A DNA stretch of 64,000 nt from an uncultured Desulfospira sp. Its GTDB lineage: Bacteria > Desulfobacterota > Desulfobacteria > Desulfobacterales > Desulfobacteraceae. The notes beneath the pieces were generated by a model. That model made no database searches and was not told where the DNA came from. It saw nothing but the letters and a program-made list of their open reading frames with translations. Where the stretch lies: the NCBI GenBank assembly GCA_963663165.1, contig OY760175.1:1728001-1792000 (forward strand), read 5' to 3'. The translations under genes were made by a program, and so were the position numbers. Below, piece after piece: positions 5,768 through 57,147 of this stretch (the first letter of the stretch is position 1; each line of letters begins with the position of its first letter).

Positions 5768-6643
5768 GTGATTGTCCAATGTGGCCGGAAAATTAAAGAC
5801 GAAGAGCTTATACAGATTTGCGAGACAGTAGAGACCTTTTCGAATTTGAGTCAGACTGAACTGGCTCATACAATATGCGAACATTTGGGCTGGTATACCG
5901 CTTCTGGTAGGAACAAGGTGGATGCCTGCCGGAAATTGCTTCTGCGACTGGAGTCCCAAGGTCTCATACGGTTGCCTGAAAAAGAGAAACTCGGTCCCAT
6001 AAAGGGCTCTCAACAGAAACTGCCGGTAGCGGACGACAGGACCCAGCCCCAAGATAAGGTAGCGGGCACGCTTTCGGATATCGGGCCGATCGTTGTCAGG
6101 GTCGCACAAGACACGGAAGAACGCTCACTGGTTAATGAATACCTGCACCGTTACCATTATCTTGGCTACAAGCGGCCGTTCGGATGTCATCTGCGTTATT
6201 TGATACAAGCTCAAGAGCGCATATTGGGATGTATGCTGTTCTCAGGGGCGGCCAAGGCGCTGACCCCGAGGGATCGATGGATCGGCTGGAGCACCAACGA
6301 ACGCTTAAGAAACTTGGGATTTGTTGTAAACAATGGACGCTTCCTGATTTTTCCGTGGGTCAAGGTCCGGTATCTGGCAAGTCACGTATTGGGTAAAATT
6401 GTCAGAGATCTGGTGCAAGACTGGGAGCGGAGCTGGGGGTATCGGCCGGCTTTGCTGGAGACCTTTGTCGACCCACAACACTTCGATGGGACGTGCTATC
6501 GGGCGGCCAATTTTAGACACCTTGGCATGACCAGCGGAAAGGGGCTTGTCCGGCAGGGTAGAAGTTACAGGACCAGTCCCAAAAAAATCTTCGTTTATCC
6601 GCTGGTGAATAATTTCCGTCAGGTTTTGAGGCAGATCGGATGA
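5768..6643 (+). CDS. DUF4338 (DruA-like) domain protein, IS passenger/accessory gene
   Basis: YHYLGY..LRYL, RDRWIGWS, VVNNGRFLIFPWV..LASHVL, LLETFVD..FDGTCYRAANF; GAGGAGG RBS; ATGA overlap with the transposase. Confidence 0.8.
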   Translation: MIVQCGRKIKDEELIQICETVETFSNLSQTELAHTICEHLGWYTASGRNKVDACRKLLLRLESQGLIRLPEKEKLGPIKGSQQKLPVADDRTQPQDKVAGTLSDIGPIVVRVAQDTEERSLVNEYLHRYHYLGYKRPFGCHLRYLIQAQERILGCMLFSGAAKALTPRDRWIGWSTNERLRNLGFVVNNGRFLIFPWVKVRYLASHVLGKIVRDLVQDWERSWGYRPALLETFVDPQHFDGTCYRAANFRHLGMTSGKGLVRQGRSYRTSPKKIFVYPLVNNFRQVLRQIG

Positions 6644-21570: not shown

Positions 21571-22734
21571 CTAATTTGTCTCCCAGAAAGGCGACATCTG
21601 CCTTAACCGTTCAATAATGGGCACCATGGCCTCAACAATGTCATCCATTTCCTGGCGGGTATTGTAATGGGACAGGGAAAACCGGATGGTCCCGTGAAGG
21701 GATTTCTGGGGGACCTTCATGGCCATGAGCACATGGGAGGGATCAAGAGAGCCCGAGGTGCAGGCCGATCCGGAAGAGGCGCAGATGCCTTTCTGATCCA
21801 GGAGCATGAGAATGGACTCCCCCTCTACGGCGTCAAAGCCGATGGACAGGGTATTGGGCAGCCGGTGGTCCATATCCCCGTTCACGGAACAGGCAGGAAT
21901 GGTGTCAAGCAGCCGGTTCTGGAGACAATCCCTTAACTCCTTAACCCGGGTGTTCATTTCATCTAAATTCTCTTTGGCCAGTTGGGCGGCCTTGCCAAGG
22001 CCGATAATGGAAACCGTGTTTTCCGTTCCGCCCCGCCGGCCCTTTTCCTGGTGGCCGCCAATAAGAAATGGCGTGAACTTGAGGCCGTTTTTGATATACA
22101 GCACACCAATGCCCTTGGGGGCATGAATTTTATGCCCGGACAAGGAGAGCATGTCCACACCGGTTTTCTTCACGTCAATGGGCACCTTGCCCGTGGCCTG
22201 GACCGCGTCGGTATGAAATAAAATCCCTTTTTGAGCCGCTTCTTTAGCAATCTCGTCAATGGGGAAAATCACGCCTGTTTCGTTGTTGGCCCACATGACG
22301 GATACGATGGCGGTATTCTCAGACATGCTTGAATAGAGCAGGTCCAGGTCCAGCCGCCCCCTGCTGTCCACGGGCACCAGGGTAATCTCATACCCCCGGT
22401 TTCTTTTTAGGTGTTTACACAGGTTAAGAATGGCCGGATGCTCAACCGCTGTGGTAATGATATGCTTTTTTTCGGGGAAAGCGGCAAGGGCCGTGTTAAT
22501 GGCCGCATTATCACTCTCCGTGCCGCAGCTGGTAAACACGATCTCATCCGGGTCCGCATTGATCAGGCCGGCCACATGTTCTCTGGCCTGTTTAACCTTT
22601 TGGGCCACCTGGTCCCCGAAGGTATACATGGAAGACGGGTTCCCGTACATCTCGCCGAAATAAGGAAGCATTGTCTCAATGACCTCATCAGCGACTTTGG
22701 TGGTGGCGTTGTTATCCGTGTAAATAATAGTCAT
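21571..22734 (-). CDS. nifS: Cysteine desulfurase NifS
   Basis: DNNATT, GNPSS, FTSCGTESDN, SGHKIHAPKG (PLP Lys), SSGSACTSGSLDPSHVL. Confidence 0.95.
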   Translation of the reverse strand: MTIIYTDNNATTKVADEVIETMLPYFGEMYGNPSSMYTFGDQVAQKVKQAREHVAGLINADPDEIVFTSCGTESDNAAINTALAAFPEKKHIITTAVEHPAILNLCKHLKRNRGYEITLVPVDSRGRLDLDLLYSSMSENTAIVSVMWANNETGVIFPIDEIAKEAAQKGILFHTDAVQATGKVPIDVKKTGVDMLSLSGHKIHAPKGIGVLYIKNGLKFTPFLIGGHQEKGRRGGTENTVSIIGLGKAAQLAKENLDEMNTRVKELRDCLQNRLLDTIPACSVNGDMDHRLPNTLSIGFDAVEGESILMLLDQKGICASSGSACTSGSLDPSHVLMAMKVPQKSLHGTIRFSLSHYNTRQEMDDIVEAMVPIIERLRQMSPFWETN

Positions 22735-22750
22735 GGGTCACCTTCTCGGG

Positions 22751-23323
22751 TTATGCCAGGCCTTGAGCAGCCCGGGTGGATTCAATGATCTGTTCGATCC
22801 GGTCAATGCATTTGCCGCAGCCGCCGCCAGCCTTAAGATAGTTGGTGACATCTTCGGTGGTCTTAAGGTCGTTGTTTTTGACGGCATCCTTAATTTCAAG
22901 ATCGGTCACATCAAAACATTCACAGACCAGGTCTCCTGGTTTCTCAAGGATCTGAACGCCCCGGTAATTGGCAATGGCCTTTTTCAAGGCGGCATGGCCC
23001 ATGACCGAGCAGTGCATTTTGGCTTTGGGAAGCCCCCCTAAATAATCGGCAATATCGTCGTTGGTCACCTTGATAGCCTCATCCAGGGTCATGCCCTTGA
23101 TGATTTCCGTCAGGGCCGATGAGGACGCCACGGCACTGGCGCAGCCAAATGTCATGAAAGAGGCATTGATGATTCTTTCATTTTCATTCACCTTTAAATA
23201 TAAGGTCAGGGCATCCCCGCAATTGAGGGACCCGGTCTCTCCCACCGCATTTGCATCTCTCATGACCCCTACGTTCCTGGGGTTCAAAAAATGGTCTTTG
23301 ACCTGATCAGAGTAATTCCACAT
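22751..23323 (-). CDS. nifU: Fe-S scaffold NifU (N-terminal scaffold plus BFD-like [2Fe-2S] domain; no C-terminal Nfu domain)
   Basis: HFLNPRNVG, CGDAL, FGCASA, KMHCSVM, then VCECF...GGGCGKC; ends at 190 aa. Confidence 0.88.
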   Translation of the reverse strand: MWNYSDQVKDHFLNPRNVGVMRDANAVGETGSLNCGDALTLYLKVNENERIINASFMTFGCASAVASSSALTEIIKGMTLDEAIKVTNDDIADYLGGLPKAKMHCSVMGHAALKKAIANYRGVQILEKPGDLVCECFDVTDLEIKDAVKNNDLKTTEDVTNYLKAGGGCGKCIDRIEQIIESTRAAQGLA

Positions 23324-23945: not shown

Positions 23946-25382
23946 ATGAGCAGCAACCAGACATTAATGCGCCGGGAGCGTGACACCTTAGGAGAACTCG
24001 ATGTTCCGGCCACGGCCCTTTACGGCATCCATACCATGCGGGCCATCCACAATTTCCCCTTTTCAACGGCCCGCCTTCCCGAACCGTTCATAAAGGCCAT
24101 GGGACAGGTAAAACAGGCCTGTGCCCTGACGAACCAGACCCTTGGCTATCTTGATCCAAATCCGGGCGAGGCCGTTATCACCGCCTGCAAAGAGCTTGAA
24201 AAAGGCGATCTGTCAGACCACATTCTGGTGGACCCCTTCCAGGGCGGGGCCGGCACCTCCACCAACATGAACGTTAACGAGGTCATTGCCAACCGGGCCG
24301 AACAACTCCTGGGCGGGAATCTAGGCGAATACCGGATGGTTCACCCCATTCATCACGTCAATATGCACCAGTCCACCAATGATGTGTATCCCACGGCTCT
24401 GAAGGTAGCAGCGCTTAAGCTGCTGGTGACCCTGGAAAACGAGATAGAAAAGCTGCAACAGGCCCTCCAGGAAAAGGAGGGGGAATTTCGCAGCATTGTA
24501 AAGGTGGCCAGAACCGAGCTTGTGGACGCCGTTCCCATGACCCTGGGCATGACCTTTGGGGCCTTTGCCGATGCCGCGGCCCGTGACCGCTGGCGTATTT
24601 TCAAGAGCCGGGAACGGATCAAACGGGTCAATCTTGGGGGAACCGCCATTGGTACGGGGCTGGGCGCGCCCAGGGACTATGTGCTGAAGGTGACTGAAAC
24701 CCTGCGGAATATCACCGCTTTACCGGTATCCCGTGCTGAAAATCTCATCGACGCCACCCAGAATATGGACCCTTTGGTAGAAGTTTCGGGCATGCTCAAG
24801 GCCTATGCGGCCAATCTGCTCAAACTGTCCTCGGATTTAAGGCTGCTGTCCAGCGGGCCTGAAACCGGCATCGGGGAGATCATTCTTGACCCCTTGCAGG
24901 CGGGATCTTCCATTATGGCCGGCAAGATCAATCCGGTCATGCCCGAAGCCGTGACCCAGGTGGCGATCAAGGTGATGGGCAACGACCAGACCATCGCCTT
25001 TGCCGCCGGCATGGGCCAGCTTGAACTCAATCACCTCCTGCCGCTGTTAACCCACACTTTTTTAGAATCACTGATGCTGCTGATCAGCGCCACAAAAGGG
25101 CTTTCCACACACTGTATCCCTAAAATCCAAGCCAACCCAAAACAATGTCTGGCCCATTTAGAACGAAGCCATGCGCTGGCCACGGTCCTGGTCCCGGCAC
25201 TGGGATATGCCCGGGTGGAGGAGATCGTCAACGCCGCAAGGGCATCGGGCAGATCCATAAAAGAGGAGATCATCCATCAGCATCTGGCATCACGGGAAAT
25301 TGTCGATACGCTGCTGTCGCCCAAACGGCTGTGTAAACTCGGGTTTACGCCAAATGAATTTGACGGGGTGAACCGGCCATGA
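23946..25382 (+). CDS. aspA: Aspartate ammonia-lyase family protein (hydrogenase-maturation-cluster type)
   Basis: QGGAGTSTNMNVNEVIAN, QSTNDVYPT, GSSIMAGKINPV. Confidence 0.9.
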   Translation: MSSNQTLMRRERDTLGELDVPATALYGIHTMRAIHNFPFSTARLPEPFIKAMGQVKQACALTNQTLGYLDPNPGEAVITACKELEKGDLSDHILVDPFQGGAGTSTNMNVNEVIANRAEQLLGGNLGEYRMVHPIHHVNMHQSTNDVYPTALKVAALKLLVTLENEIEKLQQALQEKEGEFRSIVKVARTELVDAVPMTLGMTFGAFADAAARDRWRIFKSRERIKRVNLGGTAIGTGLGAPRDYVLKVTETLRNITALPVSRAENLIDATQNMDPLVEVSGMLKAYAANLLKLSSDLRLLSSGPETGIGEIILDPLQAGSSIMAGKINPVMPEAVTQVAIKVMGNDQTIAFAAGMGQLELNHLLPLLTHTFLESLMLLISATKGLSTHCIPKIQANPKQCLAHLERSHALATVLVPALGYARVEEIVNAARASGRSIKEEIIHQHLASREIVDTLLSPKRLCKLGFTPNEFDGVNRP

Positions 25383-25430
25383 CCCCTGTGGCAGGACTTA
25401 TAAAAACACCGGCTGAAAGGAGAAATGCTT

Positions 25431-26636
25431 ATGTCCAGTAAGGCCCCCCGGGGTGTACGCCTTGTTATTGCACTGGTGGGCCGGCGCAATGCCGGAAAAT
25501 CATCCCTTGTCAACGCCATTGCCGGGCAGGAGATTGCCATCGTTTCCGATCACCCGGGCACGACCACGGACCCGGTGGCCAAGCCCTACGAACTGCTGCC
25601 CTTAGGGCCTGTCACCTTTTATGATACGGCAGGCCTGGATGACGAAGGGGAACTTGGAGACCTGCGGGTCAGGGCCACCCGGAAAATCCTCTGGCGGTCG
25701 GATGTGGCCGTGGTGGTCATTTCAGAGCAAGGCATCACCCATTATGAAAAAAAGATCGTTGATGAAATCCGTGATCTGGACATTCCCTTCCTCATGGTCT
25801 TTAACAAGAGCGATCTGGCCAGGCCTTCAGACCCGGATCTTGCCTTTTGCAGGGAAAACAGCCTGCCTTATCTGATCATCAGTGCAAAAGACAATGTGAA
25901 TATTACGGCAGTAAAAGAGGCAATTATCGACATTGCCCCGCCGGAAATAAAGCGGGAGCCTTTGCTGGCCGGCGACCTCATCAATGAGGGCGACTGGGTG
26001 GTCTGTGTGGTTCCCATTGATCTGGCAGCCCCCAAAGGCAGGCTCATCCTGCCCCAGGTTCAGGTTCTTCGTGAAATCCTGGACTGTGATGCCTTGGGGC
26101 TCATGGTCAAGGAAAAAGAAATTGATGCGGCCCTTTCCGGCCTGCATCGAAAACCGGCCCTGGTGATTGCCGATTCCCAGGTGGTGATGAGCGTGGCCGG
26201 GGACGTGCCCGAAGATATCCCCTTAACCACTTTTTCCATTCTGTTTGCCCGGTACAAGGGGGACATCACAAAGCTTACGGCCGGTGCGGCCGCCATAGAC
26301 GATCTTAAGGACGGGGACCGGGTCCTTATTGCCGAGGCCTGTTCCCACCATCCAGTGGCCGACGACATCGGCCGGGTCAAGATTCCCCGCTGGATCACCC
26401 AGTACACGGGCAGGGATTTGAACTTTGATGTCTATTCCGGCCACGATTTTCCTGAACATCTGGAAAAGTACCGGCTGGCCGTTCATTGCGGGGGATGCAT
26501 GATCAACCGCGTTGAAATGCTGCGCAGAATCAAGGAGTGCCGCCGCCGAGGGGTGGCCATTACCAACTTTGGCCTGGCCATCTCAAAGGTCCAGGGGGTG
26601 CTGGACAGGGTCATAAAGCCCTTTGGAGGGATATAA
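25431..26636 (+). CDS. hydF: [FeFe]-hydrogenase maturation GTPase HydF
   Basis: GRRNAGKSS, GTTTDPV, DTAG, NKSD, APKGRLILPQ, CSHH...HCGGC cluster motif. Confidence 0.95.
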   Translation: MSSKAPRGVRLVIALVGRRNAGKSSLVNAIAGQEIAIVSDHPGTTTDPVAKPYELLPLGPVTFYDTAGLDDEGELGDLRVRATRKILWRSDVAVVVISEQGITHYEKKIVDEIRDLDIPFLMVFNKSDLARPSDPDLAFCRENSLPYLIISAKDNVNITAVKEAIIDIAPPEIKREPLLAGDLINEGDWVVCVVPIDLAAPKGRLILPQVQVLREILDCDALGLMVKEKEIDAALSGLHRKPALVIADSQVVMSVAGDVPEDIPLTTFSILFARYKGDITKLTAGAAAIDDLKDGDRVLIAEACSHHPVADDIGRVKIPRWITQYTGRDLNFDVYSGHDFPEHLEKYRLAVHCGGCMINRVEMLRRIKECRRRGVAITNFGLAISKVQGVLDRVIKPFGGI

Positions 26637-28309
26637 TGCACCTTCAGGAAAACGGCATTACCTTCGCAGCCCCCCCCTTGAACCGGCTGCCGTCGGTTCA
26701 CAGGAAAATTTTCTGTCCGGGAAACACCTTGATTGTCTGCGTGCAGCTGGCAGACGGGCGGGTGGAAGATGCCTGGAGTACCGGCCGGATGATGCGCAGC
26801 ATGAACCTTTTGCTGCAGGTTATTTCAGATGACCCCGGCCGGCCCTGTTTTGTCCGGCGCGCCCATTGCCTGTGCAACGACGGACATGCCCTGGCTGCGG
26901 TTCGCGCATTAGAGGACCTGGCCGGGATAGCGCCGCCCCGCAGCGCGCTTCTGGTGCGCAGCCTGGTTCAGGCCCTTCGATGTATCCAGGAGCACCTGCT
27001 TCACTTTTATCAATTTCACCTGTCCAACTGGGTCTGTTTAGGGCCGGCCCTGGGGGCTGATCCCGGTAAAACCGCCCGGCTGGCAGATCCATTGAACCGG
27101 GGACCTGATTATTTCAGGCAGGTCCAGGAGCGGTTGCGGCCCCTGGCTGAAAATAAAGGGATCAATGGATTTAATGACCGTTTCTGTGATCATCCGGATT
27201 ACCGTGGAGCCGACGAATTCCATCTGCTGGTTCACAGCCACAGCCTGGAATCCCTTCAAATACAAAGTCTTCTGAACAAGGCCCTGGGGCTGCTTGGCTG
27301 TAAAAACGGCCGGCATCCGGCCTATCAGACAGGCGGGCTGTCCCCGGACATGAACCTTGGACAGGCCGTGCTGCAGCAGCTGCACGGCCTGGTTCGCCAC
27401 TGCCGGGATTTTATTAACACCTCTTTTCTTACCGATCTTGAACAGATGGCCAGGGCCTACCCCCATTGGAAGGACCTGGCCATTGGCAGCACGTTTCTTT
27501 GCCTGGGCGATTTTGCCCGACCCCATGACAGGGGCCTGCTGTTTCCCAACGGCATTACCCGGACGGCAGGCAAAAATCAAATCGTTGATCCGGCCCGGCC
27601 CGATCGGGTCACGGAAGAACACACCCCTAAATGGAAGGACCTGGACACAGAACGGTACCGGCTCAACTTCGGCAGACACGGCCCGGTATTTTTCTGGAAC
27701 AAAGGAAATTTGCCTTGGATTTTTGCTCCCCGCCACGGCAAAGATGCCTGTGAGGCGGGATCCCTTGCCCGGGTGATGGGGGCCTTTACCCAGGGCCGGC
27801 AGGAAGTGTGTAAAGCCGTAAATAACAGCCTGAAGGCCTCCGGCCTTTTGCCGGGGGATATGAACTGTGCACTGGGGAGGCTGTTGTCCCGGGGCATTGA
27901 ATCTTCGGTTCTTTCAAAGGCCGCTTTGGACTGGCTGGATGAACTCAAGACTGAACCGGTCGGCAAACGGGCATTGATGAACCAGAACTTTCGTCTGCCC
28001 CGTACCGGTGTGGGAACCGGAAAGGTGGAAGTGCCAAGGGGATCTTTGATCCATACCATCCAAATGGACAAACACAGAATCATCCGCCATGACTGCCTTA
28101 TCCCGTCCATGTGGAATTTTTCCGTCCGGGATTCAAAGGGCCGGCGCGGCCCCCTGGAACAGGCGCTGCTGGGGACACCGGTGAGAAACCCTGATCATCC
28201 CCTGGAACTTTTACGCATTGTCCACGCCTTTGACCCCTGCAACCCCTGCCATGTGGTGGTCCAGGATGCGGACACCGGAAGGGTCACCCTGTCAGGCCCC
28301 GGGACGTGA
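26636..28309 (+). CDS. Degenerate [NiFe]-hydrogenase large-subunit homolog (557 aa)
   Basis: TAATG overlap with hydF; HLLHFYQFHLSNWV, EAGSLAR, EVPRGSLIH, IPSMWN, GPLEQALLGTP, RIVHAFDPCNPC; L1 motif altered to RAHCLCNDGH. Confidence 0.85.
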   Translation: MHLQENGITFAAPPLNRLPSVHRKIFCPGNTLIVCVQLADGRVEDAWSTGRMMRSMNLLLQVISDDPGRPCFVRRAHCLCNDGHALAAVRALEDLAGIAPPRSALLVRSLVQALRCIQEHLLHFYQFHLSNWVCLGPALGADPGKTARLADPLNRGPDYFRQVQERLRPLAENKGINGFNDRFCDHPDYRGADEFHLLVHSHSLESLQIQSLLNKALGLLGCKNGRHPAYQTGGLSPDMNLGQAVLQQLHGLVRHCRDFINTSFLTDLEQMARAYPHWKDLAIGSTFLCLGDFARPHDRGLLFPNGITRTAGKNQIVDPARPDRVTEEHTPKWKDLDTERYRLNFGRHGPVFFWNKGNLPWIFAPRHGKDACEAGSLARVMGAFTQGRQEVCKAVNNSLKASGLLPGDMNCALGRLLSRGIESSVLSKAALDWLDELKTEPVGKRALMNQNFRLPRTGVGTGKVEVPRGSLIHTIQMDKHRIIRHDCLIPSMWNFSVRDSKGRRGPLEQALLGTPVRNPDHPLELLRIVHAFDPCNPCHVVVQDADTGRVTLSGPGT

Positions 28310-28340: not shown

Positions 28341-29351
28341 ATGAACCGGAACACCATATTAGATGCACTTAAAGACCAAACCGGACAAACCGGCCTGTTT
28401 GCGGCAGCCGATCGGGTGCGCAAAGAAAACCTTGGCGACACCGCCCAGCTGCGCGGCGTGGTCCATTTCTCAAATTACTGCCGGTGTAATGACCTTTATT
28501 GCGGCCTGCTTAAAAACAACACCCAATGCCGGCGGTTTCGCATGAGTGAGGATAAGATTGTCGACACGGCCCTGGCCATTGCCCGGGCCGGGTTAAAAAC
28601 CGTGGTGCTTCAGTCGGGTGAGGACCTTTACTACACCCGGCCCATGATCAGTTCTGTGATTGAACGAATCCTGGATAACGCCGATGTGGCCGTTACCTTA
28701 AGCTTGGGAATGCGGTCCAGAGACGACTTTAAGGCCTTTCGGGACGCCGGGGCCCAGCGGTATCTCATGAAGCACGAAACCATGAACCCCGTTCTCTATT
28801 CCAGGATGCGCCCGGGCCAGCAGCTTGCGGACCGGCTTAAAACCATCCATGAGTTGCGGGAACTCGGATACCAGGTGGGGGTGGGCAATATCGTGGGCCT
28901 GCCCGGCCAGACCCTTTCAGATCTGTGCGAGGACATCCTTTTTTTCCAGGATTTCCAGCCGGACATGATTAATATCGGCCCGTTTATTCCCCATGCCCAG
29001 ACCGTGCTTAAGGATGAACCGGCCGGGGACATGGACCTGATGCTGCGGGTGTTTGCCTTAACCCGGATGGTGACCGGCAACACCCATATTGCTGCGGCCA
29101 ATACCGTGGCCACCCTGGACCCGGAACAGGGGCAGTACCGGGCCTTGACTCAGGGCGGCGCCAATGTAATGATGCCCAATTGCAACCCGTTTCAAAAAAG
29201 CCAAAAGGATAAAATTGAATACGAGTTTCAGATAACCACCCATAAACGCTACGTTTCCGTTAACGAGGCCCGAAGCGTCCTTGCCCGGGCCAACCGGACC
29301 GTGGACAAGGGAAAGGGACACTCCCTTAAAATACGAGGAGAACAGGTTTGA
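28341..29351 (+). CDS. hydE: HydE-like radical SAM protein with non-canonical Cys motif
   Basis: LRGVVHFSNYCRCNDLYCGL, TVVLQSGED, TLSLG, RYLMKHET, VGLPGQT, GPFIPH, GANVMMPN. Confidence 0.8.
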   Translation: MNRNTILDALKDQTGQTGLFAAADRVRKENLGDTAQLRGVVHFSNYCRCNDLYCGLLKNNTQCRRFRMSEDKIVDTALAIARAGLKTVVLQSGEDLYYTRPMISSVIERILDNADVAVTLSLGMRSRDDFKAFRDAGAQRYLMKHETMNPVLYSRMRPGQQLADRLKTIHELRELGYQVGVGNIVGLPGQTLSDLCEDILFFQDFQPDMINIGPFIPHAQTVLKDEPAGDMDLMLRVFALTRMVTGNTHIAAANTVATLDPEQGQYRALTQGGANVMMPNCNPFQKSQKDKIEYEFQITTHKRYVSVNEARSVLARANRTVDKGKGHSLKIRGEQV

Positions 29352-30103
29352 TTAAGGTAGCCATATACGGTAAGGGGGGCATTGGCAAATCCACCGTGGC
29401 CTCATGCATATCCGCCGCTTTAGGGATACAGGGAACCCATGTCATGCAGATCGGCTGCGACCCCAAAACCGATTCCACCATCAATCTTCTGGGGGGAACC
29501 CCGCCGCCGCCCATCCTGCAGTATCTTCAGGAAAACGGGCGGCCCGACACCCTGGACGCCATTGCCAGACGGGGCTTCGGCAATACAATCTGCATGGAGG
29601 TAGGCGGCCCGACCCCGGGTGTGGGCTGTTTTGGCCGGGGCATGCTCACCGCTTTTGAGCTTTTGGACGACATGGGCGCCTATGATGTTTACCAGCCGGA
29701 CGTGGTGCTTTACGACATTCTGGCCGATGTGGTGTGCGGCGGCATTGCCGTGCCCATGCGCGAAGGATTTGCCGATAAGGTCTGTATTGTCACCTCAGGT
29801 GAAAAAATGGCCCTGCTGGCCGCCCAGAACATTATCCTGGCCCTGCGCAATTTTGCAGACCGCAACTATGCTGAACTCGGCGGGCTGATCCTCAACTGCC
29901 GGGATATGGAAAACGAAGCGGAACGGGTAAAGGCCTTTGCCCAGAAAATGGAAACCGCCATTTTAGGGGTGATTCCCCGGGACAGGGCCATCCACACATT
30001 TGAAGAAGAAGGCAAGACCATTGTTGAGGCAGACCGTACCCTGCCCACCTCGGCCCGGTTTTTTGAACTGGCCAAAACCATTGCCGGGTTTGGGGACCTT
30101 TAA
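29348..30103 (+). CDS. NifH-like reductase (nitrogenase-like, group IV type Fe protein)
   Basis: YGKGGIGKST, QIGCDPK, PGVGCFGRG and DVVCGG (both cluster Cys), VTSGE; TTGA overlap with hydE. Confidence 0.9.
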   Translation: MIKVAIYGKGGIGKSTVASCISAALGIQGTHVMQIGCDPKTDSTINLLGGTPPPPILQYLQENGRPDTLDAIARRGFGNTICMEVGGPTPGVGCFGRGMLTAFELLDDMGAYDVYQPDVVLYDILADVVCGGIAVPMREGFADKVCIVTSGEKMALLAAQNIILALRNFADRNYAELGGLILNCRDMENEAERVKAFAQKMETAILGVIPRDRAIHTFEEEGKTIVEADRTLPTSARFFELAKTIAGFGDL

Positions 30104-30148
30104 AACATTGCTCAAGGATTGAACAAACACGACCGTAAGGATATTTGT

Positions 30149-31447
30149 ATGGACCTGGATCATGCCCGCATCAGGGTTGAAAACCTGCGTGAGAAATCGG
30201 ATTTTCCCTTTGCCCCCCTGGAAGGGGTGGGCCCTAACCTGGCCGGCTGGGGCGTCATCGAGACCTGCCTGCTGCTGCCGGAGTCGGTGGCGGTCATGGT
30301 CGGGCCTTCGGCCTGCCTGCGCCATTCAGCCTTTATGGCCCATGCCAGGGGATTTACAGAACGGTTTTATATGCTGTGCGTGCCTGAACTTGACATGGCC
30401 ATGGGCAATCACCTGTCCGTGGTGGAAAAGGGCATCAGGGACATTGCAAAAACGCGGCAGGAAAAGGTAATTTTCCTGATTGTGGGGTGCCCGGATTATA
30501 TTCTGGGTACGGATCTTACCGGGGTCATCCGGCGCCTGGAAGCCGCCACCGGGAAAAAGATCATCCCCGGGGCCATGGCACCCATTACCATCGGGCTTAA
30601 ATCATCCCCCTTTGCCTCGGCCTATACCTCGTTTTTCGAGTTCCTTAAGGACACACCCCGGGGTCAAGATGACCGGGTCCTCAACCTTTTGGGCACATTT
30701 ATGCCCCTGTCGGATTCCGGGGAGCTTTATCAGGTTCTGGCCGCCGCCGGCATGGACACGGTACTTCAAATCCCCCTGTGCCGTGATTTAACACAATTCT
30801 CGCGCATGGCCCATGGCCGGGCCTCAGTGGTCCTGCACCCGCTGGCCAACGGCCTTTCCGGCAAAATGGAACAAGAGATGGGCATTCCGGCCTGTTTTGC
30901 GCCAACGTCCTATGGATTTTCCATTATCCGGGAACAGTATGAGAAAATCAGTGAGGCTGTGGGACAGCCCCTTGATACCGGGCCTTATGAACAGGCGGCC
31001 CGGCAGGCGGCGGCCCCCTTGCTGGAGATGCTTTACGGCAAATCGGCCGCCGTGGGATGCAGTATCAACGGCAGCCCCTTTGAGCTTTCCCTGTTTCTGG
31101 TCCAAAGCGGTGTCAATGTGGAAGCCGTTTTTGCCCGGGGCGCCATCAAGCCCTATGAATGGGACCTGATCCAGCAATTGCGTAAGGTAAAACCGGACAT
31201 CCATGTGTACAACGCATCCCATCCGGCCCTGTGCGGACACACCCAACCTTTTGACACCGTGGAACTGGCCTATGGCGTTGATGCGGGTATTTTTTGTGCC
31301 CAGGCCGCCAATGTGCCCCTGTCCCGCTACCAGGAACAAACATACGGGTTTGAAGCCGCTGTCTGGATGCTTGAACAAAGCTGCCGGGCCCTGACCCATC
31401 CGGTGGACAACTATGAGTGGATATACAAACACAACTTTCTCATATGA
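30149..31447 (+). CDS. Nitrogenase component-1-like subunit (NifD/NflD-like)
   Basis: VMVGPSACLRH, ELDMAMG, IVGCPDYILGTD, LNLLG; follows the NifH-like gene. Confidence 0.8.
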   Translation: MDLDHARIRVENLREKSDFPFAPLEGVGPNLAGWGVIETCLLLPESVAVMVGPSACLRHSAFMAHARGFTERFYMLCVPELDMAMGNHLSVVEKGIRDIAKTRQEKVIFLIVGCPDYILGTDLTGVIRRLEAATGKKIIPGAMAPITIGLKSSPFASAYTSFFEFLKDTPRGQDDRVLNLLGTFMPLSDSGELYQVLAAAGMDTVLQIPLCRDLTQFSRMAHGRASVVLHPLANGLSGKMEQEMGIPACFAPTSYGFSIIREQYEKISEAVGQPLDTGPYEQAARQAAAPLLEMLYGKSAAVGCSINGSPFELSLFLVQSGVNVEAVFARGAIKPYEWDLIQQLRKVKPDIHVYNASHPALCGHTQPFDTVELAYGVDAGIFCAQAANVPLSRYQEQTYGFEAAVWMLEQSCRALTHPVDNYEWIYKHNFLI

Positions 31448-31457
31448 GGGATCACCC

Positions 31458-32657
31458 ATGAAAGCATATCATCATCTCCTTCCCCTGGCCACGGGCTATT
31501 TCGGGGTCAGTTCCGCACTTTACAACTTTGGCGGCCTGGTGGTCATCTATGGACCTGCAGGCGGGGCCTGGCACATCAATATCGAGGATGAACCGCGCTG
31601 GTACCGGGGGCCGGCCACAGTGGTGGGGGCGGGCCTGCTGGAAATGGACGTGATCCTGGGCAATGATAACAAATTTATCACCCATATCGTTGAGACCGCC
31701 AAGGGGTTGAATTCCCCTTTTGTGGCCCTGTCAGGCACCCCCATCTCAGAGATTATCGGTACCGATCTTAAGGGATTTGTGCGGAGTGTTGAAAGCCGTA
31801 CCGGCATCCCGGTGTTCATGGTGCCCACGGCCGGTTCCGAACCCTATCCCGAGGGGGCGTCCAAGGCGCTTCTGGCCCTTTCCGACAAAATCATGGATCC
31901 GGATGCCCCTAAGCAGCCCAAAGGGGTTAACATCCTCGGGGCCATTCATCTTTCCACGGGCCGGCAGGCCCATATCGAACCGTTGCTTAACGCCATCCGG
32001 GAAGATGGATTTAAGCTTATGGGCGGGTTTTCCTGCCCCATCCCCGGGCAGGATGATCCCCTTGAAGGGATTCGCGTGGCGCCGGGTGCTGAGGTTAACG
32101 CCGTGGTGTCCACCAGCGGGCTGGCCCTGGCCGAGCGGATGTATACGGATTTTGGAATTCCCTTTGTGGCGGGCATGCCGGTCGGGCTTTCCGGACGTGA
32201 TGCCTTTCTGGCCATGCTGCACGGACAACGGCCTGAGTTTCAGCTGCCAAAACAGGAAACAACCCCTTACCGGCACGCCCTGGTTATTGGCGAACCAATC
32301 ATGGGATACGGGGTCCGGCATTGCCTGCGTTATGATTTCGGCCTGCCCCGGGTGGACGTGATCTCAGTAACCCCCAGTGAACCGCTTTTCCGGGAATCCA
32401 AAGGCCGGACCGGCATCTTGGCCGAACAGGGACCCGCAGATATGGACACGGACGACGAGCAGCAGATCACAGAATTGATGAATGACCCGGATGTGGACCT
32501 GATTGTAGCGGACCCCTTTTACCAGGCCCTGCTCACCAAAGAGGCAGCGTTCATCCCTTTACCCCATGTGGCCATGAGTGCCCGGATTCATTGGGACATG
32601 GGTTACGAATACGCCGTGGACAAGGGGTACGCGTATCTGGCCTCACGTCTGCAATGA
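31458..32657 (+). CDS. Nitrogenase component-1-like subunit (NifK/NflK-like), lacking the usual cluster Cys
   Basis: GVSSAL, LLEMDVILG, GTPISEIIGTDL, GVNILG, GIPFVAGMPVG, LIVADP. Confidence 0.75.
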   Translation: MKAYHHLLPLATGYFGVSSALYNFGGLVVIYGPAGGAWHINIEDEPRWYRGPATVVGAGLLEMDVILGNDNKFITHIVETAKGLNSPFVALSGTPISEIIGTDLKGFVRSVESRTGIPVFMVPTAGSEPYPEGASKALLALSDKIMDPDAPKQPKGVNILGAIHLSTGRQAHIEPLLNAIREDGFKLMGGFSCPIPGQDDPLEGIRVAPGAEVNAVVSTSGLALAERMYTDFGIPFVAGMPVGLSGRDAFLAMLHGQRPEFQLPKQETTPYRHALVIGEPIMGYGVRHCLRYDFGLPRVDVISVTPSEPLFRESKGRTGILAEQGPADMDTDDEQQITELMNDPDVDLIVADPFYQALLTKEAAFIPLPHVAMSARIHWDMGYEYAVDKGYAYLASRLQ

Positions 32658-37219: not shown

Positions 37220-37660
37220 TTACTTGCCGTTTCCCTGGCCGGTCATATAAAGCCGCAACGCTTCCTGAACGGTTCCGGCGGCAAGGTAGGCGCAATGTTC
37301 CTCATCTTTGGGCATTTCCCCGAGTTTGGACAAGATCAGCTCCCCGGTTATATCGGCCAGCTCTTCCACCTGTTTTCCAATGCTCAGTTCTGCGGCAAAT
37401 GATCCGCACACGTTGCTGGACCCGCACCCGTCGGTCACGTATGAAGCACTTTTGACCCTTTCCCCCTCAAGTTCAAGAAAAATATCCATGGAATCCCCGC
37501 AGTCTCCCACGGTATGGGCATGAACATCGCAGTGTTCCATGACCCCCCTGAATTTGGGATTCTGCCACCGGTCAAAACCGGCATCCCCTAAAACGGTCCT
37601 TGCCTCATCAAATATCTGACCTTGAAGGTCATCCAAAAACTTATCCAGGTTGTCCGCCAT
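37220..37660 (-). CDS. IscU/NifU N-terminal-domain scaffold-like protein
   Basis: GDCGDSM, DGCGSS, EHCAYLA. Confidence 0.85.
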   Translation of the reverse strand: MADNLDKFLDDLQGQIFDEARTVLGDAGFDRWQNPKFRGVMEHCDVHAHTVGDCGDSMDIFLELEGERVKSASYVTDGCGSSNVCGSFAAELSIGKQVEELADITGELILSKLGEMPKDEEHCAYLAAGTVQEALRLYMTGQGNGK

Positions 37661-41213: not shown

Positions 41214-44200
41214 ATGAGATACCCGAAACACATTCGAATTTTTAGATTCATCATCCCGGTAATATTGTTCACCATTCTCAGTATAACACCCGCTTTTGGA
41301 ACAGACCTTCCCACAGACGATGATCTGGCCCAGACCATGGAGTGTGAATGGGCGACAATTGAAGATCCGGAAAATCCCGGAGAAGAAATCAATGATCCCA
41401 ATGACAAGTTAGTCGCCCTTGCGGCCAGCCTGGATAATGACCCGGTTAAAATTTACAACTGGGTTTATAAGAATATTTATTCTCCCCAGTTTATTTACTC
41501 TCAGCTTGAGAATGGCTCCTGGAAGTATGATTATACGAAATCCAGGTTGGGGGCAAGAGGGGCATATCTATCAAAAAGAGGAAATTCATGGGACCAGTCT
41601 TCCTTATTAATTGCACTTTTAAGGATATCCAATATTCCGGCTCGTTATGTTCAACTGGGGTCATATCATCTGGTTTATGTTGAAGCCTGGCTGGATCTGG
41701 ACAATTATCATGGAATAGCTGATAGCAGCCAGAAAGGATGGGTCCCTCTTTTTCCCTGGCTCAAAGAGAACAATTTCATTGAAGGCCTGGATCTGTTTGT
41801 AACGGACGGGTCGATAACAGACCCGGTACCGGACGGTTTGGAATTTGATTTTAAAGACTACCTTTCTTCACCGGACGAAAATGGAAGCGTTGTAAAGCAT
41901 GAGACAACACTTGAAAAATATGAAGAAAAACTCCAGAATATTTTAAACACAAACCATCCAGGGAAATCATTAAAAGATATTCCCTTCAATGAAGACTTAA
42001 TCGACAACACGGCCCTGGTTCTGCCCAGATCTTTTCCGTCAAAACTTAAACTATTTTTATCAGTCACCAAGAACCGGTTCAGCGAAGTTGACCCTTCAAA
42101 CCGGGAATACATCCGGCTGGTAATAAGAAATTACAGCAGCACCGGCACCAGCCTCCTTGATTACACCCTTTACATGCCAAAAGCTGCCGGTAAAAGGTTT
42201 TGCCTGGACTGGAATTATTCAGGCTCTTCTTTTCAGCCGGTATTCAAATTAGATGGTGAGTCTGTCCAGACAAGCTCCTACACATTGGGGGCTGATGATA
42301 ATTTTTATATCGTGTATCAGGTTGCTGGTCAAAGTTCGGTTCTCCGCGATCAAAAACGGGCCGCAGGCACTTTCATGCAGATCGGTTTTGACCCTTTAAG
42401 TGCTTCTCAGATCACCATTGAAAAAGCCAAACAAGAATTACAAACCGTTGATGCCAGCAACGTCCTTGATCCGTCTACCCACGAAGAATATCTCGGACTC
42501 ATGGGGCAGGTTTTATCGGAAACTTTTTTATACCGGCTATATGAAAATGCCAGGAAAACCACCAGTTATTTCTATGGGATAAAATACTGGGGCCTTAGTC
42601 CAACGTTTATTTACACAGATTATAATTCTGACGACCATCCTATCCCGACAGACCCGGAATCCAAATTTTATTATCATCCACAATGGAAAATTGACGCTCA
42701 ATCTTCAGCTTCCATGATTAAATGGGACAGTTCAGGACAGCAACTGGTTACCTACTCTACCGACCCTGATCATAACAACTGGGATGCGCCGATAAACGTG
42801 ACCTCAAAAAGGATTTCAGGGTTTGTCGCGTCATTTAACGAAGGCAGAATCTTTGAAGACTGGATGGATACTCCGGGGGCCAGCACCATCAAAGGGCTGA
42901 TGATAGCCAATGAAGACCCTGACAATACCGGCAACCATATGGTGGAATTAACGAGTGACAGCATTGTTAGCGAAACTCAGACAACAACATCTTCCTTTGA
43001 AAGTGTTCCTCTTTCCGGTGAACAGCCTACATGGTCTACTGGTGCGGCGATAAATGATCTTTATAAAGTAGATTACGATGAAGCTTATGATGGTTTTCAA
43101 CTTAATGGTGCTTTAAGGGTTCCTGATAGCTGGGTACTGGTTGATCCTAACAGCAACTCCTTTCCTTTGGATGCAGATGCAATTGATGGTAGCTACGGAG
43201 TTGTTGTTTGGCCTAACGCATACATCACAAGAGGATCAAAATTTGACCTGAAAACATTTAAGTACGCCAGTCTGGGTAATGGGGCTAAGTATAAAGTTGT
43301 TGGTTATCGTAGAGATTCCAATGGTAATTTAGTTTCTGTCAGTGGGTATGAAAAAAATCTAACGGCAAATCAAAGTCCACAAATAGCGACTTTCAATTGG
43401 ACGGATGTTCATCAAATTTATATTGTACGAACAACAGCGGCAACTACATTTTATGACCCGCTTATTATTGATAATCTCCAGTATATCCGCAAAGAATACG
43501 TTTCCGACCTTGAAAATCAAACAGAAGGATATCTCGGCACCAAAACCGTTTGGGACATTATCCAATTGCTTGACCAAGGTGACACCGTTGTAACACCGGT
43601 CCAAATCGTTGAACATGACGGCATGACGGGCAATATCCGCATTGTTTACGGAGCAGATGGAAGCGACCAGTATTCCTTTGGCATGGATAACGGCGGATCT
43701 TCTTCAAAAGAAACAACAACAAACGAGTCCTATACAGATACGAATACAATCTCGCTGGACTCAGGCACTTTAAGCTCTACTACCCAGACCGACTGGAAAG
43801 ATAAATACACCACCCTGGTCAATGGTGTAGAAACAACCATTAAAAAAGCCTCAGAAACCATGAATGCGGCAAAGACCGCCCTGGGCGACCCGGTAGACAT
43901 GGTAAGCGGCGAGTTCTACACGGAAGAAACCCCGGATTTCCTGATCAAGTCCCGGGGGCTCGATTTATCCATTATCCGTAAATACAGAAGCCAGCTGATC
44001 TACAACGGCCCGTTCGGATACGGCTGGACCTGGAATCATGCAGAGCGTATCCTGCCCTTGGCCGGTGGTGATGTCCTTTATTACAATAACGACGGGGATG
44101 CCCTGGAACTCACCTCTAACGGTGACGGGACATATACCTGTCCTTTGGGGTCGCAATTTGTTCTGGCCATAGAATCCGGCCAATACGTCATCACCCAAAA

Positions 44201-47200
44201 CCGGACCCGGCAAAAATCCTATTTTTCCGACCAGGGGTATCTGGTCAGGAAAGAGGACCGGTTCGGCAATACCCTGACATTTGGATATGGCAATACCAGC
44301 TATCCGGGTCAAATTACCGCCATAACGGACGGCCTTGGCAGATCCCTTACCCTGGCCTATAACTCAAACGGTAAAGTCATCAGTATCACGGACTTTGAGG
44401 GCCGGTCCTGTTCCTACCTTTACAGTGACATAAGTTCCGGAGACGGGCTTGGAGACGACCTGATTGAGTTCAGAGGCCTTGATTACCAAACCAGCCTTGA
44501 TAACGCCACCCGGTACGAATATTTGTCCAATCAGGAAAACGTATACCTGAACCATAACATGACCAAGTACACCCTGCCGGGCGGGGATTATCTTGAGATC
44601 GGGTATTATAAAAACGACCAGGCGGCCTATCATACCAACGCCAAGGGCGAGACCTTCAACTTCATGTACAGCCGGTTGAACCGGTATGCAGAAACCTGGA
44701 ACGAAGAGGGGTATTACCGGAAGGTCTTTTTCAACGAAGCCAATGACGTTATCCGGGTCGCCAATGAGGACGGCACCATTGAACAGATGGCGTATGATGA
44801 ATACGGCCATCATAATAAGATTTCTCATACGGATGGCAATGGATACACCACCACGTTCCAATACTATCCTGACGGCGCAGCCGATCCGGAAGCTTATGTC
44901 AAAAAACGGAATCTGTATCTTAAAACCGATGCCCTGGGCTGCACCTGGGCTTATCAGTACGATGATACGAATAACGCCTATGCACCGTCTCAAGCAACAG
45001 ACCCTGCCGGTAACATCACTCAGTTTGAATATGATACCAACGGCAGTCTCTATAAAAAAATTCAGGCTCCGGGTTACGCCTTTGATGGTAACCAAGATCT
45101 GGTGGCGGACGCAAACGCCACGGGATTCGAAACCGTATACGAGTATGACGCTTACGGGAATATCACCAGAATCACGGACCCGTTAAGCCGGTATGAAGAA
45201 CGGATCTACGATACAAACAGCCTGTATCTTGTCACTAAAAAGGACAAGCTGGGCAACGAGACCCGGTACCAGTATTACAAAGACTTCGTGGAAAACATGC
45301 CCATAGGGGCGGTTAAATCCGTAACGGTTGTATCCGGAACCAATGAATACACCACCACTTATGAATATGACCAACTGGGCCGGAAAACCAAAGAAACAGA
45401 TCCGCTATCCCAGGCAACCCAATACCAGTACACCCTTGACGGGAAGCTTGAAAAAATCACTAAGCCCAACGGTGCCGTAACCCAACATATCTATGACACG
45501 GCCAGGGACATCGTGTCCGGAGCCCAGATCATAGAAACCATAGATCCGCTGGGTAACTCCGTTCATTTTTCCTATGATGCCACAGGCAAGCTGATTAAAA
45601 AGCAGGATAAAAACGGGAACATCTTCACCTTTGCCTATGACAAAATGGGCCGCCTCGCCAAAGAGGTTGATCCGTTCAGAACCGTCAAAAATTATGTTTA
45701 TGACGGCAACGGCAATAAAACCTCAATCAAACTTTATAATCAGGCTGGAGTTCTGCTCAAGGAAACCAAATTCACCTATAACGCCGCCAACCAGCTGGTG
45801 GAAAAAACCATCCCCTGCGACTTTGAAGAAGATGGTTGTGAAAAAACGGTTCAGTACCAATACACCCTTGACGGTAAACCACAGAGCCAGACCATTGTTT
45901 TTCCGGAAGGGGACGATTTAGTCACCTGGTATGAATACAATGCCCTGGGCCGGTTAAAACAGGAAACCAAAGGATACGGAACTGATGACGCCCGGGCCAC
46001 CCAATACAGATATGACGCCCTGGGCCGGTTGACCCGGACCATATTCCCCTTAGGCAATTCTGAGGTCCGTGAATATGATGCCAACGGCAATGTAACTGCC
46101 GTAAAACTCTATGACCAGGCCGGGACCCTGATGGAAGAGACTGGAAACATTTATGATGCCCGTAATCTTCTGGTTGAAACCGTTAATCCTCTGGGAAACA
46201 GCACATACTACACCTATGACGCCCTTGGAAGAAAAACGGAACAATTTCAATTCCTGACCGAATCCGGGGATATGATCCAGTACCAGTGGCAGTATGATGC
46301 CGTGGGCAACCTGGTCCAGGAAACCGACCCCCTGGGCCGGCTGACCCGGCACGGATATGACCTGAACAACCAAAAGGCCAAAACTGTTGACGCCCTGGGC
46401 CAGACCACTGCATTTGAATACGATCCCAACGGCAACCTGGTGGCCGTCACCTATCCGGACTTGAGCCGGACTGTTACCTATTATGACGCCCTGAACCGAA
46501 AAATCGGTGTTGAAGATGAACTGGGCTATATTCAGACCCTTGACTATGATGAAGACTCCAACCTGGTGTCCCACCTGGATGCCCGGAAGGGGATCTCCAC
46601 CTTTGAATATGATGCGGCCAAGCGGTTGAGAAGAAAAACCAATGCCCTTGGATATACTGAAGAGACCGAATACGACCCGGCAGACCGGGTAATTCAGACA
46701 ACAGACGCCAGGGGGATTATAACCCTGCTTTCATATGATGCCGCAAGCAACCTGGTCAGCCAAACCCTGGCTTCCGGCACAGATGATCAAACCGTTACCC
46801 AATTTGAATATGACCTCAACAACCGGAAAATCAGAGAGATCCATGAGACAACCCAAGGGGACCAGATTACAGCCTTCGAATATGACGACCGGGGCTTGCT
46901 GACCCACAGGAAAAACGGATTCCACACCGGTTCCCCGGAAATCTGGGAATATGAATATGATAAAGCCAGGCAACTGGTGGCGACCATTGATCCCAACGGT
47001 AACACCATCCAGGTGTTTTATGATGCCGTTGGCCGCAAAAAAGCCCAGACCCAGGCCCAGGGCCTGGTGAAATATTACTGGGAGTACGACCTGGCCGGAA
47101 ACGTCACCCTTGAAAGAAAACCCGAGGGAGAGGAAATCCAGAACGCCTATGATGCCCTTAACCGCCTGGTTCTGGAAACCAGGGGGGGCGACCAGCGCCG

Positions 47201-50340: not shown

Positions 50341-50359
50341 GAGTGATAGGGAAAGATGT

Positions 50360-57128: not shown

Positions 57129-57147
57129 GAGTGATAGGGAAAGATGT

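Follow-up and report, generated by a model that had tools for sequence, protein, structure and literature searches.

The stretch of DNA considered here (the window, 64,000 nucleotides in full; positions 1,728,001 to 1,792,000 of contig OY760175.1 in assembly GCA_963663165.1) comes from an uncultured Desulfospira sp. of the Desulfobacteraceae. It contains an operon in which a protein related to the large subunit (LSU) of group-1 [NiFe] hydrogenases is encoded amidst proteins related to the maturases of [FeFe] hydrogenases and to the components of nitrogenase. The genes of this operon are arranged in the order aspA-like lyase, hydF, LSU-like, hydE', nflH, nflD and nflK, with stop and start codons that overlap or nearly abut; HydE' denotes a HydE-family radical S-adenosylmethionine (radical-SAM) protein, and NflH, NflD and NflK (NflHDK) a set of nitrogenase-like (NFL) proteins. 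The genome of the window, labelled G000 (throughout, G numbers denote genomes and L numbers loci), consists of a single contig of 6.74 Mb and is 96.7% complete. On the sequence evidence set out below, the LSU-like open reading frame (ORF) encodes a protein that descends from a group-1 [NiFe] large subunit, is maintained by selection and is itself no hydrogenase. Among seven sequencing runs known to contain this DNA, none is classed as RNA.

The LSU-like gene (26636..28309, + strand) is open over all 557 residues of its translation, as an earlier note on this DNA had claimed. Its start codon, the ATG at 26636, is supported by a GGAGG sequence 7 nt 5' of it and by a TAATG overlap, in which the TAA stop of hydF runs into the ATG. 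The PF00374 (NiFeSe_Hases) profile matched residues 71-540 with 320 bits, against a cut-off of 25.8 bits, and the best solved relative was the large subunit of the periplasmic enzyme from D. gigas (1yq9_H, E 2e-76). An AlphaFold2 (AF2) model generated with 35 homologues had a predicted local confidence (pLDDT) of 85.9 and a predicted TM-score (pTM) of 0.89, with low confidence at residues 1-20, 61-74 and 175-182. Foldseek placed this model on group-1 large subunits with query-normalized TM-scores (TMq) of 0.77-0.78; for 1yq9_H the TMq was 0.77 and the target-normalized score (TMt) 0.81. Together, the translation, the profile match, the alignment to 1yq9 and the model show the protein to be a paralogue of group-1 [NiFe] large subunits in which the metal site has been rewired.

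In [NiFe] large subunits the second Cys of each of two pairs bridges Ni and Fe, whereas the first Cys of each pair binds Ni only. Around the CN and CO ligands lie the Arg of the PRG segment and the P-S/T segment, and a C-terminal His marks the endopeptidase cleavage site and binds Mg. We aligned the LSU-like protein with the canonical LSU encoded in G000 and three other LSUs, as well as with 1yq9. At the L1 motif, the canonical R-S/A-C-G-V-C-T-Y-x-H (as in RSCGVCTYIH) is replaced by RAHCLCNDGH (26858..26887, residues 75-84, + strand), in which the first Cys has become His77 and the Gly has become Cys78, while the second Cys (C80) and H84 are kept. At the L2 motif, DPCIACxxH is matched by DPCNPCHVV (28232..28258, residues 533-541, + strand), with both Cys retained and the His of the cleavage and Mg site replaced by Val541. 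The counterpart of the canonical RIEGH is FCPGN (26711..26725, residues 26-30, + strand), where Pro stands for the proton-relay Glu and the invariant Asn30 for the His, Cys27 is new and the Gly is kept. Two further segments are retained on the same strand, namely EVPRG with the active-site Arg (28028-28042, residues 465-469) and the Pro-Ser segment IPSMWN (28100-28117, residues 489-494). The alignment thus bears out what the earlier note had read from the letters at L1 (RAHCLC), at L2 (DPCNPCHVV, the Cys pair kept and the terminal His lost) and in the retained VPRG and IPSMWN. The catalytic Glu of RIEGH is gone, but the motif is not unrecognizable as that note had supposed, since an xCxGN form with the Gly is still visible. 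We also considered a conserved tail, VVVEDxDTGR, as a new feature of the protein and rejected it, because the canonical LSUs from the same lineages carry a comparable extension (V-I-D-x-x-T) and the tail is hence inherited.

Given these residue roles, the LSU-like protein would retain the positions of the two bridging Cys and of one terminal Cys, along with the Arg, Pro-Ser and Asp-Pro segments that lie round Fe(CN)2CO, and would have lost one terminal Ni-Cys, the proton-relay Glu, the C-terminal His and any small subunit. On that basis it appears to have kept the Fe side of the site, and to be missing parts of the Ni side, its route for protons, the site where it would be processed and a partner for electron transfer.

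A database search recovered 55 close homologues of the LSU-like protein with 39-99% identity, below which the next matches drop to 25%, and their sources point to the Desulfovibrionaceae (Pseudodesulfovibrio, Desulfobaculum, Desulfolutivibrio), among them Pseudodesulfovibrio nedwellii, P. methanolicus, Desulfobaculum xiamenense and Desulfolutivibrio sulfoxidireducens. Residues were tallied across the resulting 56 members, 3 of them truncated. A comparison of orthologs, which the earlier note had suggested as a check on the motif changes, found them to be conserved: H77 is present in 47/56, C78 in 54/56, C80 in 56/56, C535 in 53/53 and C538 in 50/53. A single member has Cys at position 77, beside C78, so that the canonical CGxC occurs in 0/56. 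H84 and N30 are invariant (56/56 each), C27 is found in 53/56, and Glu occupies the relay position 28 in only 3/56. The segments round the diatomic ligands are likewise strongly conserved, with R468 in 54/54, P490 and S/T491 in 55/56 each and W493 in 56/56. At position 541, where canonical proteins have His or Arg, members of the family have Val, Leu, Arg or Met (His in 0/53, Arg in 4/53). The xCxGN form was encountered in about 9 of 1.84 billion cluster representatives, and from the next match downwards the motif reads RIEGH.

In a tree from a quick IQ-TREE search of 21 LSU-like rows and 45 canonical large subunits, the LSU-like rows formed one clade with an SH-aLRT support of 100, and the branches that separate it measured 0.79 and 0.78. 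The clade includes L060, which a 39% identity cut had labelled 'canonical'. The three Desulfobacteraceae rows (the window, L040 and L041) nest within the Desulfovibrionaceae rows, which points to lateral acquisition. The ratio of nonsynonymous to synonymous substitution rates (dN/dS) of four LSU-like pairs was 0.19-0.35, indicative of purifying selection, and 79 columns were invariant among 17 orthologues. Since the family is a single clade under purifying selection whose changes are conserved in 56 members, the gene is not decaying; random loss of Cys through pseudogene drift, which the earlier note had named as the case against it, was not seen.

A scan with one genome per species yielded 23 loci with LSU-like orthologs. 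In all 23 the genes follow one another as LSU-like, hydE', nflH, nflD and nflK wherever the contig is long enough to include them, and all five are present in 18; we refer to this set as the module. The LSU-like protein is its fastest-evolving member, with identities across loci of 39-81% versus 61-95% for its partners, and with a dN/dS in the range given above versus 0.09-0.25 for HydE'. Among 161 sampled Desulfovibrionaceae genomes, NflD orthologues were found in 18, and these are exactly the 17 with the LSU-like gene and G178, in which the LSU-like gene is apparently broken. In G178 (L098; 10001-11625 and 16620-18752) the LSU-like gene and hypD/hypE appear to be split and HydF is also missing, and in L060 (16204-16832) hypD/hypE appear to be split; these splits could represent real decay of the module or indel errors of long-read assembly. 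Inspection of the gene order found a gene for the FeS small subunit of [NiFe] enzymes neither in any of the 23 loci nor in the operon of the window, and the module showed neither the Ni-insertion genes hypA and hypB nor one for an endopeptidase. The earlier note had placed the LSU-like gene between hydF and hydE. This holds in the window and is not a conserved arrangement, as only in 8 loci does hydF come immediately before the LSU-like gene; the partners that never vary are the divergent HydE and NflHDK, on the last of which that note was silent.

Of the 18 loci that continue beyond nflK, 14 have a hypC gene there in the same orientation, and hypC, hypD and hypE occur together in 10 of those 14 (the flanking hypCDE of L046 and L043 were identified by tblastn). 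Flank annotation and tblastn found no hypC, hypD or hypE after the module in the window, L040, L041 and L053. The hallmark motifs of the Hyp proteins are the MC- of HypC, the CGxH, GFETT and CPVC of HypD and the -PRIC of HypE, and these are kept in 8/8 in-cluster sets checked. G167 and G164 have a second HypD elsewhere, so that their in-cluster copy is an extra one, while G000, G162 and G171 have one HypD in total, that of G000 being 2.4 Mb from the operon of the window. In L058 the module is directly followed by hypC, hydA, hydB (hydrogenase small subunit) and a TM1266-like regulator.

HydE' (28341..29351, + strand; 336 aa, with its ATG at 28341) is the only HydE homologue in G000. It matched the TIGR03956 profile with 265 bits, narrowly over the cut-off of 254.6 bits, whereas canonical HydEs of the window's family score 335-346, and it aligned with T. 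maritima HydE with 253 bits across 279 residues. Its radical-SAM motif, CRCNDLYC (28479..28502, + strand), is non-canonical. In the alignment of orthologues the middle Cys of the CX3CX2C motif is replaced by Asp in 22/22 module orthologues scored (C-x-x-x-D-x-x-C), whereas two canonical HydEs (L108 and L111) read CxxxCxxC. An extra Cys occurs at +1 or +2 in 21/22 orthologues, the exception being L058, which has none, and a Cys is also found in an MPNCNP segment. We tried the TIGR03956 score as a means of separating HydE' from canonical HydE and rejected it, as the canonical HydEs of the Desulfovibrionaceae overlap in score (212-315 bits); the Asp-for-Cys motif does separate the two.

The three nitrogenase-like genes follow on the same strand. 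NflH (29348..30103, +; PF00142, 252 bits) is a NifH-like ATP-dependent reductase, the TTG start of which overlaps the hydE' stop. It has the P-loop GKGGIGKS, and its Cys94 and Cys130, which align with the cluster ligands of NifH, are invariant in 22 sequences. NflD (30119..31447, +; PF00148) is a NifD/NifE-like component-1 subunit in which, across 20 sequences, five Cys (C66, C87, C124, C372 and C393) never vary and two more (C221 and C314) are conserved at 95%. Its nearest solved relative is 9fmg_A (E 4e-11), the entry cited, in the part of the text available, by a preprint on methylthio-alkane reductase. NflK (31413..32657, +; PF00148) is a NifK/NifN-like component-1 subunit with an uncertain exact start. 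It has one invariant Cys, C304, in 20 sequences, and its nearest match in the PDB is NifE (E 2e-5). NflHDK thus combines a NifH-type P-loop and two cluster Cys with a component-1 pair containing PF00148, as is expected of a nitrogenase-like reductase.

Upstream of the LSU-like gene, the operon begins with an aspA-like class II lyase of the aspartate ammonia-lyase family (23946..25382, + strand; PF00206, PF10415, and NF008909 at 605 bits against a cut-off of 510). In its product C59, C81, C390 and C401 are invariant in 10 orthologues, which seemed unusual for the aspartase/fumarase family. The accessible text of PMC11736057 proposes that aspA in hyd operons supplies the NH3 for the dithiomethylamine bridge. 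This gene is followed by hydF (25425..26636, + strand; TIGR03918, 548 bits against a cut-off of 325.6), the sole copy in G000 of the gene for the [FeFe]-hydrogenase maturation GTPase and scaffold, with the ligands of the CxH...HCxxC motif (C306, H308, H354, C355 and C358) invariant in 10 orthologues. The aspA-hydF pair lies directly upstream of the module in the window and 7 other loci and on the opposite strand, 2-4 kb downstream, in 2 loci; in most others it lies beyond the 10-kb flank. Divergently upstream of the operon are nifS-like and nifU-like genes (21571-23323, - strand), together with clpB, and a second NifU_N protein is encoded downstream of it (37220-37660, - strand). This arrangement is shared with L040 only and is therefore not part of the conserved module.

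G000 has one HydE and one HydF, both encoded in the operon of the window, and two HydA genes, both with TSCCPxW, MPCxxKxxE and ExMxCxxGCxxG. Across the whole contig no match to the HydG profile (TIGR03955, cut-off 312 bits) exceeded the cut-off, the best and only one being HydE' at 36.8 bits. Because both HydA genes keep their full motifs, G000 needs an H-cluster, and yet it has no HydG. One HydA gene, HydA1 (618 aa), was noted in L116 (G000:C1:4890001-4902000). The protein encoded before it combines a NuoF-type 4Fe-4S domain with a GltD-like pyridine-nucleotide oxidoreductase domain, and after it come Pta and a radical-SAM protein. The canonical [NiFe] and [NiFeSe] enzymes of G000 each have their own small subunit; three of the four Oxidored_q6 genes adjoin their own LSUs and the fourth lies 690 kb away. 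Further LSU genes with an in-frame TGA, consistent with [NiFeSe] selenocysteine enzymes, occur at G000:C1:4597005-4598309 and 3148876-3150126.

We then considered the co-occurrence of these genes in 26 module-bearing genomes, in the 161 Desulfovibrionaceae genomes and in a sample of 161 genomes of the Desulfobacteraceae. HydA is present in 25/26 module genomes (the exception being G163) and HydF in 24/26 (the exceptions being G163 and G178), while HydG exceeds its cut-off in 4/26 (G176, G267, G311 and G318) and is absent from 22/26. Genomes with both the module and HydG carry a second, canonical HydE. In G168, G174, G213 and G250, from which HydG is missing, a canonical HydE is encoded at a different place from the module, and in G168 and G174 HydF lies beside this HydE, next to hydA. 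Among the 161 Desulfovibrionaceae genomes, the LSU-like gene was found in 17, HydG in 52 and HydE in 72. HydG was present in 3/18 module genomes, compared with 45/54 of those that have HydE and lack the module (Fisher p = 6e-7, with no correction for relatedness).

Judged from its sequences, the LSU-like protein is a new conserved large-subunit variant, which marks what is, as far as the literature searched extends, a previously undescribed hybrid module of Hyp, Hyd and Nif-like components. The reading we find best, which we hold tentatively and put slightly short of an even chance, is that the module provides a HydG-independent route to the H-cluster in which the LSU-like protein would act as a Hyp-loaded Fe-CN/CO scaffold. 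HypC, HypD and HypE, and perhaps HypF, would load an Fe-CN/CO unit onto the LSU-like protein as scaffold or carrier. HydE' and the ATP-driven NflHDK might then process this unit, be it by reduction, by exchanging a ligand or adding CO, or by detaching it from the Cys thiolates. The product would be an organometallic iron precursor, which HydF would pass to HydA while AspA supplied the NH3, and the module would thereby replace HydG in organisms that lack it. In its more explicit form this proposal is somewhat less secure again: HydG-less sulfate reducers might build the [2Fe] subcluster by a hybrid path, in which an Fe-CN/CO unit made by HypCDE(F) from carbamoyl phosphate is parked on the LSU-like scaffold and converted by the Asp-motif HydE' and NflHDK (through extra CO, reduction to Fe(I) and thiolate release) to a HydF-bound precursor. 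The dedicated HypCDE set, in the loci that have it, points to the loading of the LSU-like protein with an Fe-CN/CO unit. The invariant presence of HydE' and NflHDK, the frequent aspA-hydF, the hydA of L058 and the scarcity of HydG point to the [2Fe] subcluster as the destination. What the data show directly are the sequence features, how they are conserved and under what selection, the fixed synteny and the co-occurrence counts; that the protein binds a cofactor, which way the unit is passed, what HydE' and NflHDK do chemically and that the module serves the H-cluster are inferred.

Several observations weigh against the HydG-independent route. The putative metal positions H77, C78, C27 and C538 are each missing in a few members of the family. 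The product of the Hyp system, Fe(CN)2(CO), differs from the HydG synthon, Fe(CO)2(CN), so that extra chemistry must be assumed. The Fisher test treats related genomes as though they were independent, and so overstates the signal linking the module to a lack of HydG. HydG does occur in four module genomes, and in two of them, G311 and G318, HydF sits with the canonical HydE and HydG rather than with the module; G163 has the module, and yet neither HydA nor HydF was found in it. Nine HydE-positive Desulfovibrionaceae genomes, for which completeness values are not given, have neither HydG nor the module. In the family of the window the absence of HydG is not specific to the module, as 24/161 genomes have HydA homologues, 7 HydE and 2 HydG. 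In that family G104 and G111, both 100% complete, have a HydA-HydE-AspA-HydF locus and neither HydG nor the module, and in G112, of the same genus and also 100% complete, a HydA homologue occurs without a single maturase. The occurrence of HydG in some module genomes and of HydG-less genomes without the module means that the absence of HydG is neither necessary nor sufficient for the module, and other routes, or HydA homologues that are not matured, must exist. The suggestion in the earlier note that the LSU-like protein is a scaffold standing in for a missing HydG is thus favored by the absence of HydG from G000 and 22/26 carriers and by the hypC-hypD-hypE that follow the module in most Desulfovibrionaceae loci, and is called into question by the four carriers with HydG and by G104 and G111.

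We also looked for a clean complementarity between HydG and the module in the window's own family, and rejected it, as most HydA-bearing genomes there have no maturase of any kind. The hyd locus of the complete genome G111 (L114; G111:C1:2060001-2080000) comprises a formate dehydrogenase (FDH)-like protein, a ferredoxin, HydA, a sigma-54 activator, an ABC transporter, HydE, an AspA-like protein, HydF and a transposase. This locus, from a member of the Desulfobacteraceae, represents a second kind of hyd locus without HydG.

The same genes can be read in other ways. One is that the LSU-like protein is itself the end user of the cofactor, being the catalytic subunit of a new enzyme. HypCDE, HydE' and perhaps HydF would assemble its organometallic site, which might be Fe-only or a Cys/His-ligated Fe-CN/CO centre, and NflHDK would be its ATP-driven electron donor or maturase; proximity to hyd genes would then reflect a shared island of H2 metabolism or shared maturases. 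We consider this unlikely, though it is the main rival. A dedicated hypCDE is what the maturation of a large subunit would be expected to require, the LSU-like gene is the first of the module and always accompanies NflD, and the newly conserved C27, H77, C78 and N30 suggest a site that has been remodelled rather than emptied; the module moreover co-occurs with HydG in 4 genomes and is found without HydA or HydF in G163. However, neither a small subunit nor another FeS electron-transfer partner adjoins the gene, its product no longer has the proton-relay Glu, and this reading leaves unexplained why 22/26 carriers have no HydG. The LSU-like protein also evolves fastest in the module, which fits a scaffold better than a catalyst. 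Alternatively, NflHDK could be the real enzyme: as in methylthio-alkane or isethionate reductase, it would reduce some small molecule with the aid of a radical-SAM protein, and the LSU-like protein would be an accessory such as a metallochaperone or a gas- or redox-sensing partner. This would accord with the many invariant Cys of NflD, with its nearest solved relative being the methylthio-alkane reductase entry 9fmg, and with the known nitrogenase-like systems that, in the portions available of PMC11423573 and PMC13474568, pair NflHDK with a radical-SAM protein. Yet the radical-SAM partner here is a HydE homologue and not of the NifB type, the neighbours are hydF, aspA, hypCDE and hydA rather than genes for sulfur assimilation, and NflD resembles MarD only weakly (E 4e-11), all of which makes this explanation improbable.

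Two simpler explanations fare worse. That the LSU-like protein is an ordinary Ni-binding large subunit served by a small subunit encoded elsewhere might be argued from its full-length group-1 fold, its Cys at 3/4 positions and its active-site Arg. However, no member has the canonical L1 or the C-terminal His and only 3/56 have the relay Glu, a small subunit occurs in 0/23 loci, G000 has no orphan group-1 small subunit nearby, and the family forms a separate long-branch clade; we hence regard the idea as very improbable. The last alternative, that the gene is a functionless duplicate in decay, could draw on its faster evolution relative to its neighbours and on one or two broken-looking copies (L098; the hyp genes of L060), which are possibly long-read assembly errors. 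Against it stand a frame that is intact in nearly all copies, the low dN/dS and the 79 invariant columns, and a fixed place in a conserved operon with translational coupling; conservation effectively refutes it.

If the proposed scaffold function is correct, the module would be the first HydG-independent pathway to the H-cluster, and no earlier system would have combined the Hyp, Hyd and Nif-like machineries of maturation. In the part of it available, a 2024 Cell paper (PMC11216029) sees an alternative route of H-cluster maturation as likely but unknown, and acknowledges as a question how [FeFe] maturation proceeds without the full HydEFG; the module would offer a concrete, genetically compact and testable candidate. 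Open-access papers and bioRxiv preprints, without their supplements, contained no account of an LSU-like/HydE/NflHDK/HypCDE cluster or of a HydG-independent bacterial route. In the accessible text of a 2026 review of the NFL family (PMC13474568), the terms HydE, HypD, Desulfovibrio and 'hydrogenase large' do not occur, most group IV and VI clades are said to have no function, and genomic context is said to have been of little help so far. Even if the candidate is wrong, there remain a conserved clade of rewired [NiFe] large subunits that is no ordinary hydrogenase, a HydE subfamily with a non-canonical radical-SAM motif and a functional context for an uncharacterised nitrogenase-like clade. 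A HydG-free route, should it exist, could simplify the heterologous production of [FeFe] hydrogenases.

Elsewhere in the window, three very large proteins with RHS repeats, each with a DUF6531 domain, are encoded in tandem on the + strand (41214-49511, 50330-56308 and 57034-63003; 2765, 1992 and 1989 aa). After each comes a small ORF (49528-49920; 56322-56711, with a double zinc ribbon; and 63013-63798), and these pairs look like polymorphic toxin/immunity cassettes. Towards the other end of the window, a DruA-like (Druantia) protein adjoins a DDE_Tnp_1-associated ORF (5768-6643 and 6640-8166, + strand).

When compared with the periplasmic group-1 [NiFe] large subunits (1YQ9/2FRV of D. gigas and the HynA-like LSU of G000, G000:C1:4462370-4464046), the LSU-like protein has the same fold at about 30% identity. 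It keeps the second L1 Cys, both L2 Cys, the His at L1+4, the Arg of EVPRG, PSxWN and DPC; it differs in the replacement of the first L1 Cys by His with a new Cys adjacent to it, in the change of RIEGH to xCxGN and in the loss of the C-terminal His. Instead of a small subunit, a Tat partner and an endopeptidase gene, it has HydE', NflHDK and HypCDE as neighbours. The likeness to HydG, the radical-SAM tyrosine lyase that makes the Fe(CO)2(CN)Cys synthon, lies in the proposed function only. HydA, HydF and a HydE accompany the module, with HydG missing in 22/26 carriers; the module is unrelated to HydG in sequence, and on this proposal its CN would come from carbamoyl phosphate, as in the Hyp system, rather than from tyrosine. 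HydE' can be aligned with the HydE of T. maritima (the family of PDB 3CIX/7O1O) and scores over the TIGR03956 cut-off, but it has Asp for the middle Cys and a displaced Cys.

Like methylthio-alkane reductase (MarBHDK) and isethionate reductase, as portrayed in the parts available of the sources cited above for these systems, the module joins an ATP-dependent NifH-like protein and a pair of the D/K heterotetramer type with a radical-SAM gene. Its NflD and NflK are nonetheless distant from the solved NFL members (E 4e-11 and 2e-5), with a single invariant Cys in NflK, and the radical-SAM partner is HydE-like and not NifB-like. In comparison with the HypCDEF-dependent maturation of [NiFe] large subunits, the recipient in the present case lacks one Ni ligand and the His of the cleavage site, and hypA/hypB and an endopeptidase were not seen in the module; a resemblance to that system may lie in the complete in-cluster hypC-hypD-hypE, with its hallmark motifs, that follows the module in most Desulfovibrionaceae loci, though not in the window, L040, L041 or L053.

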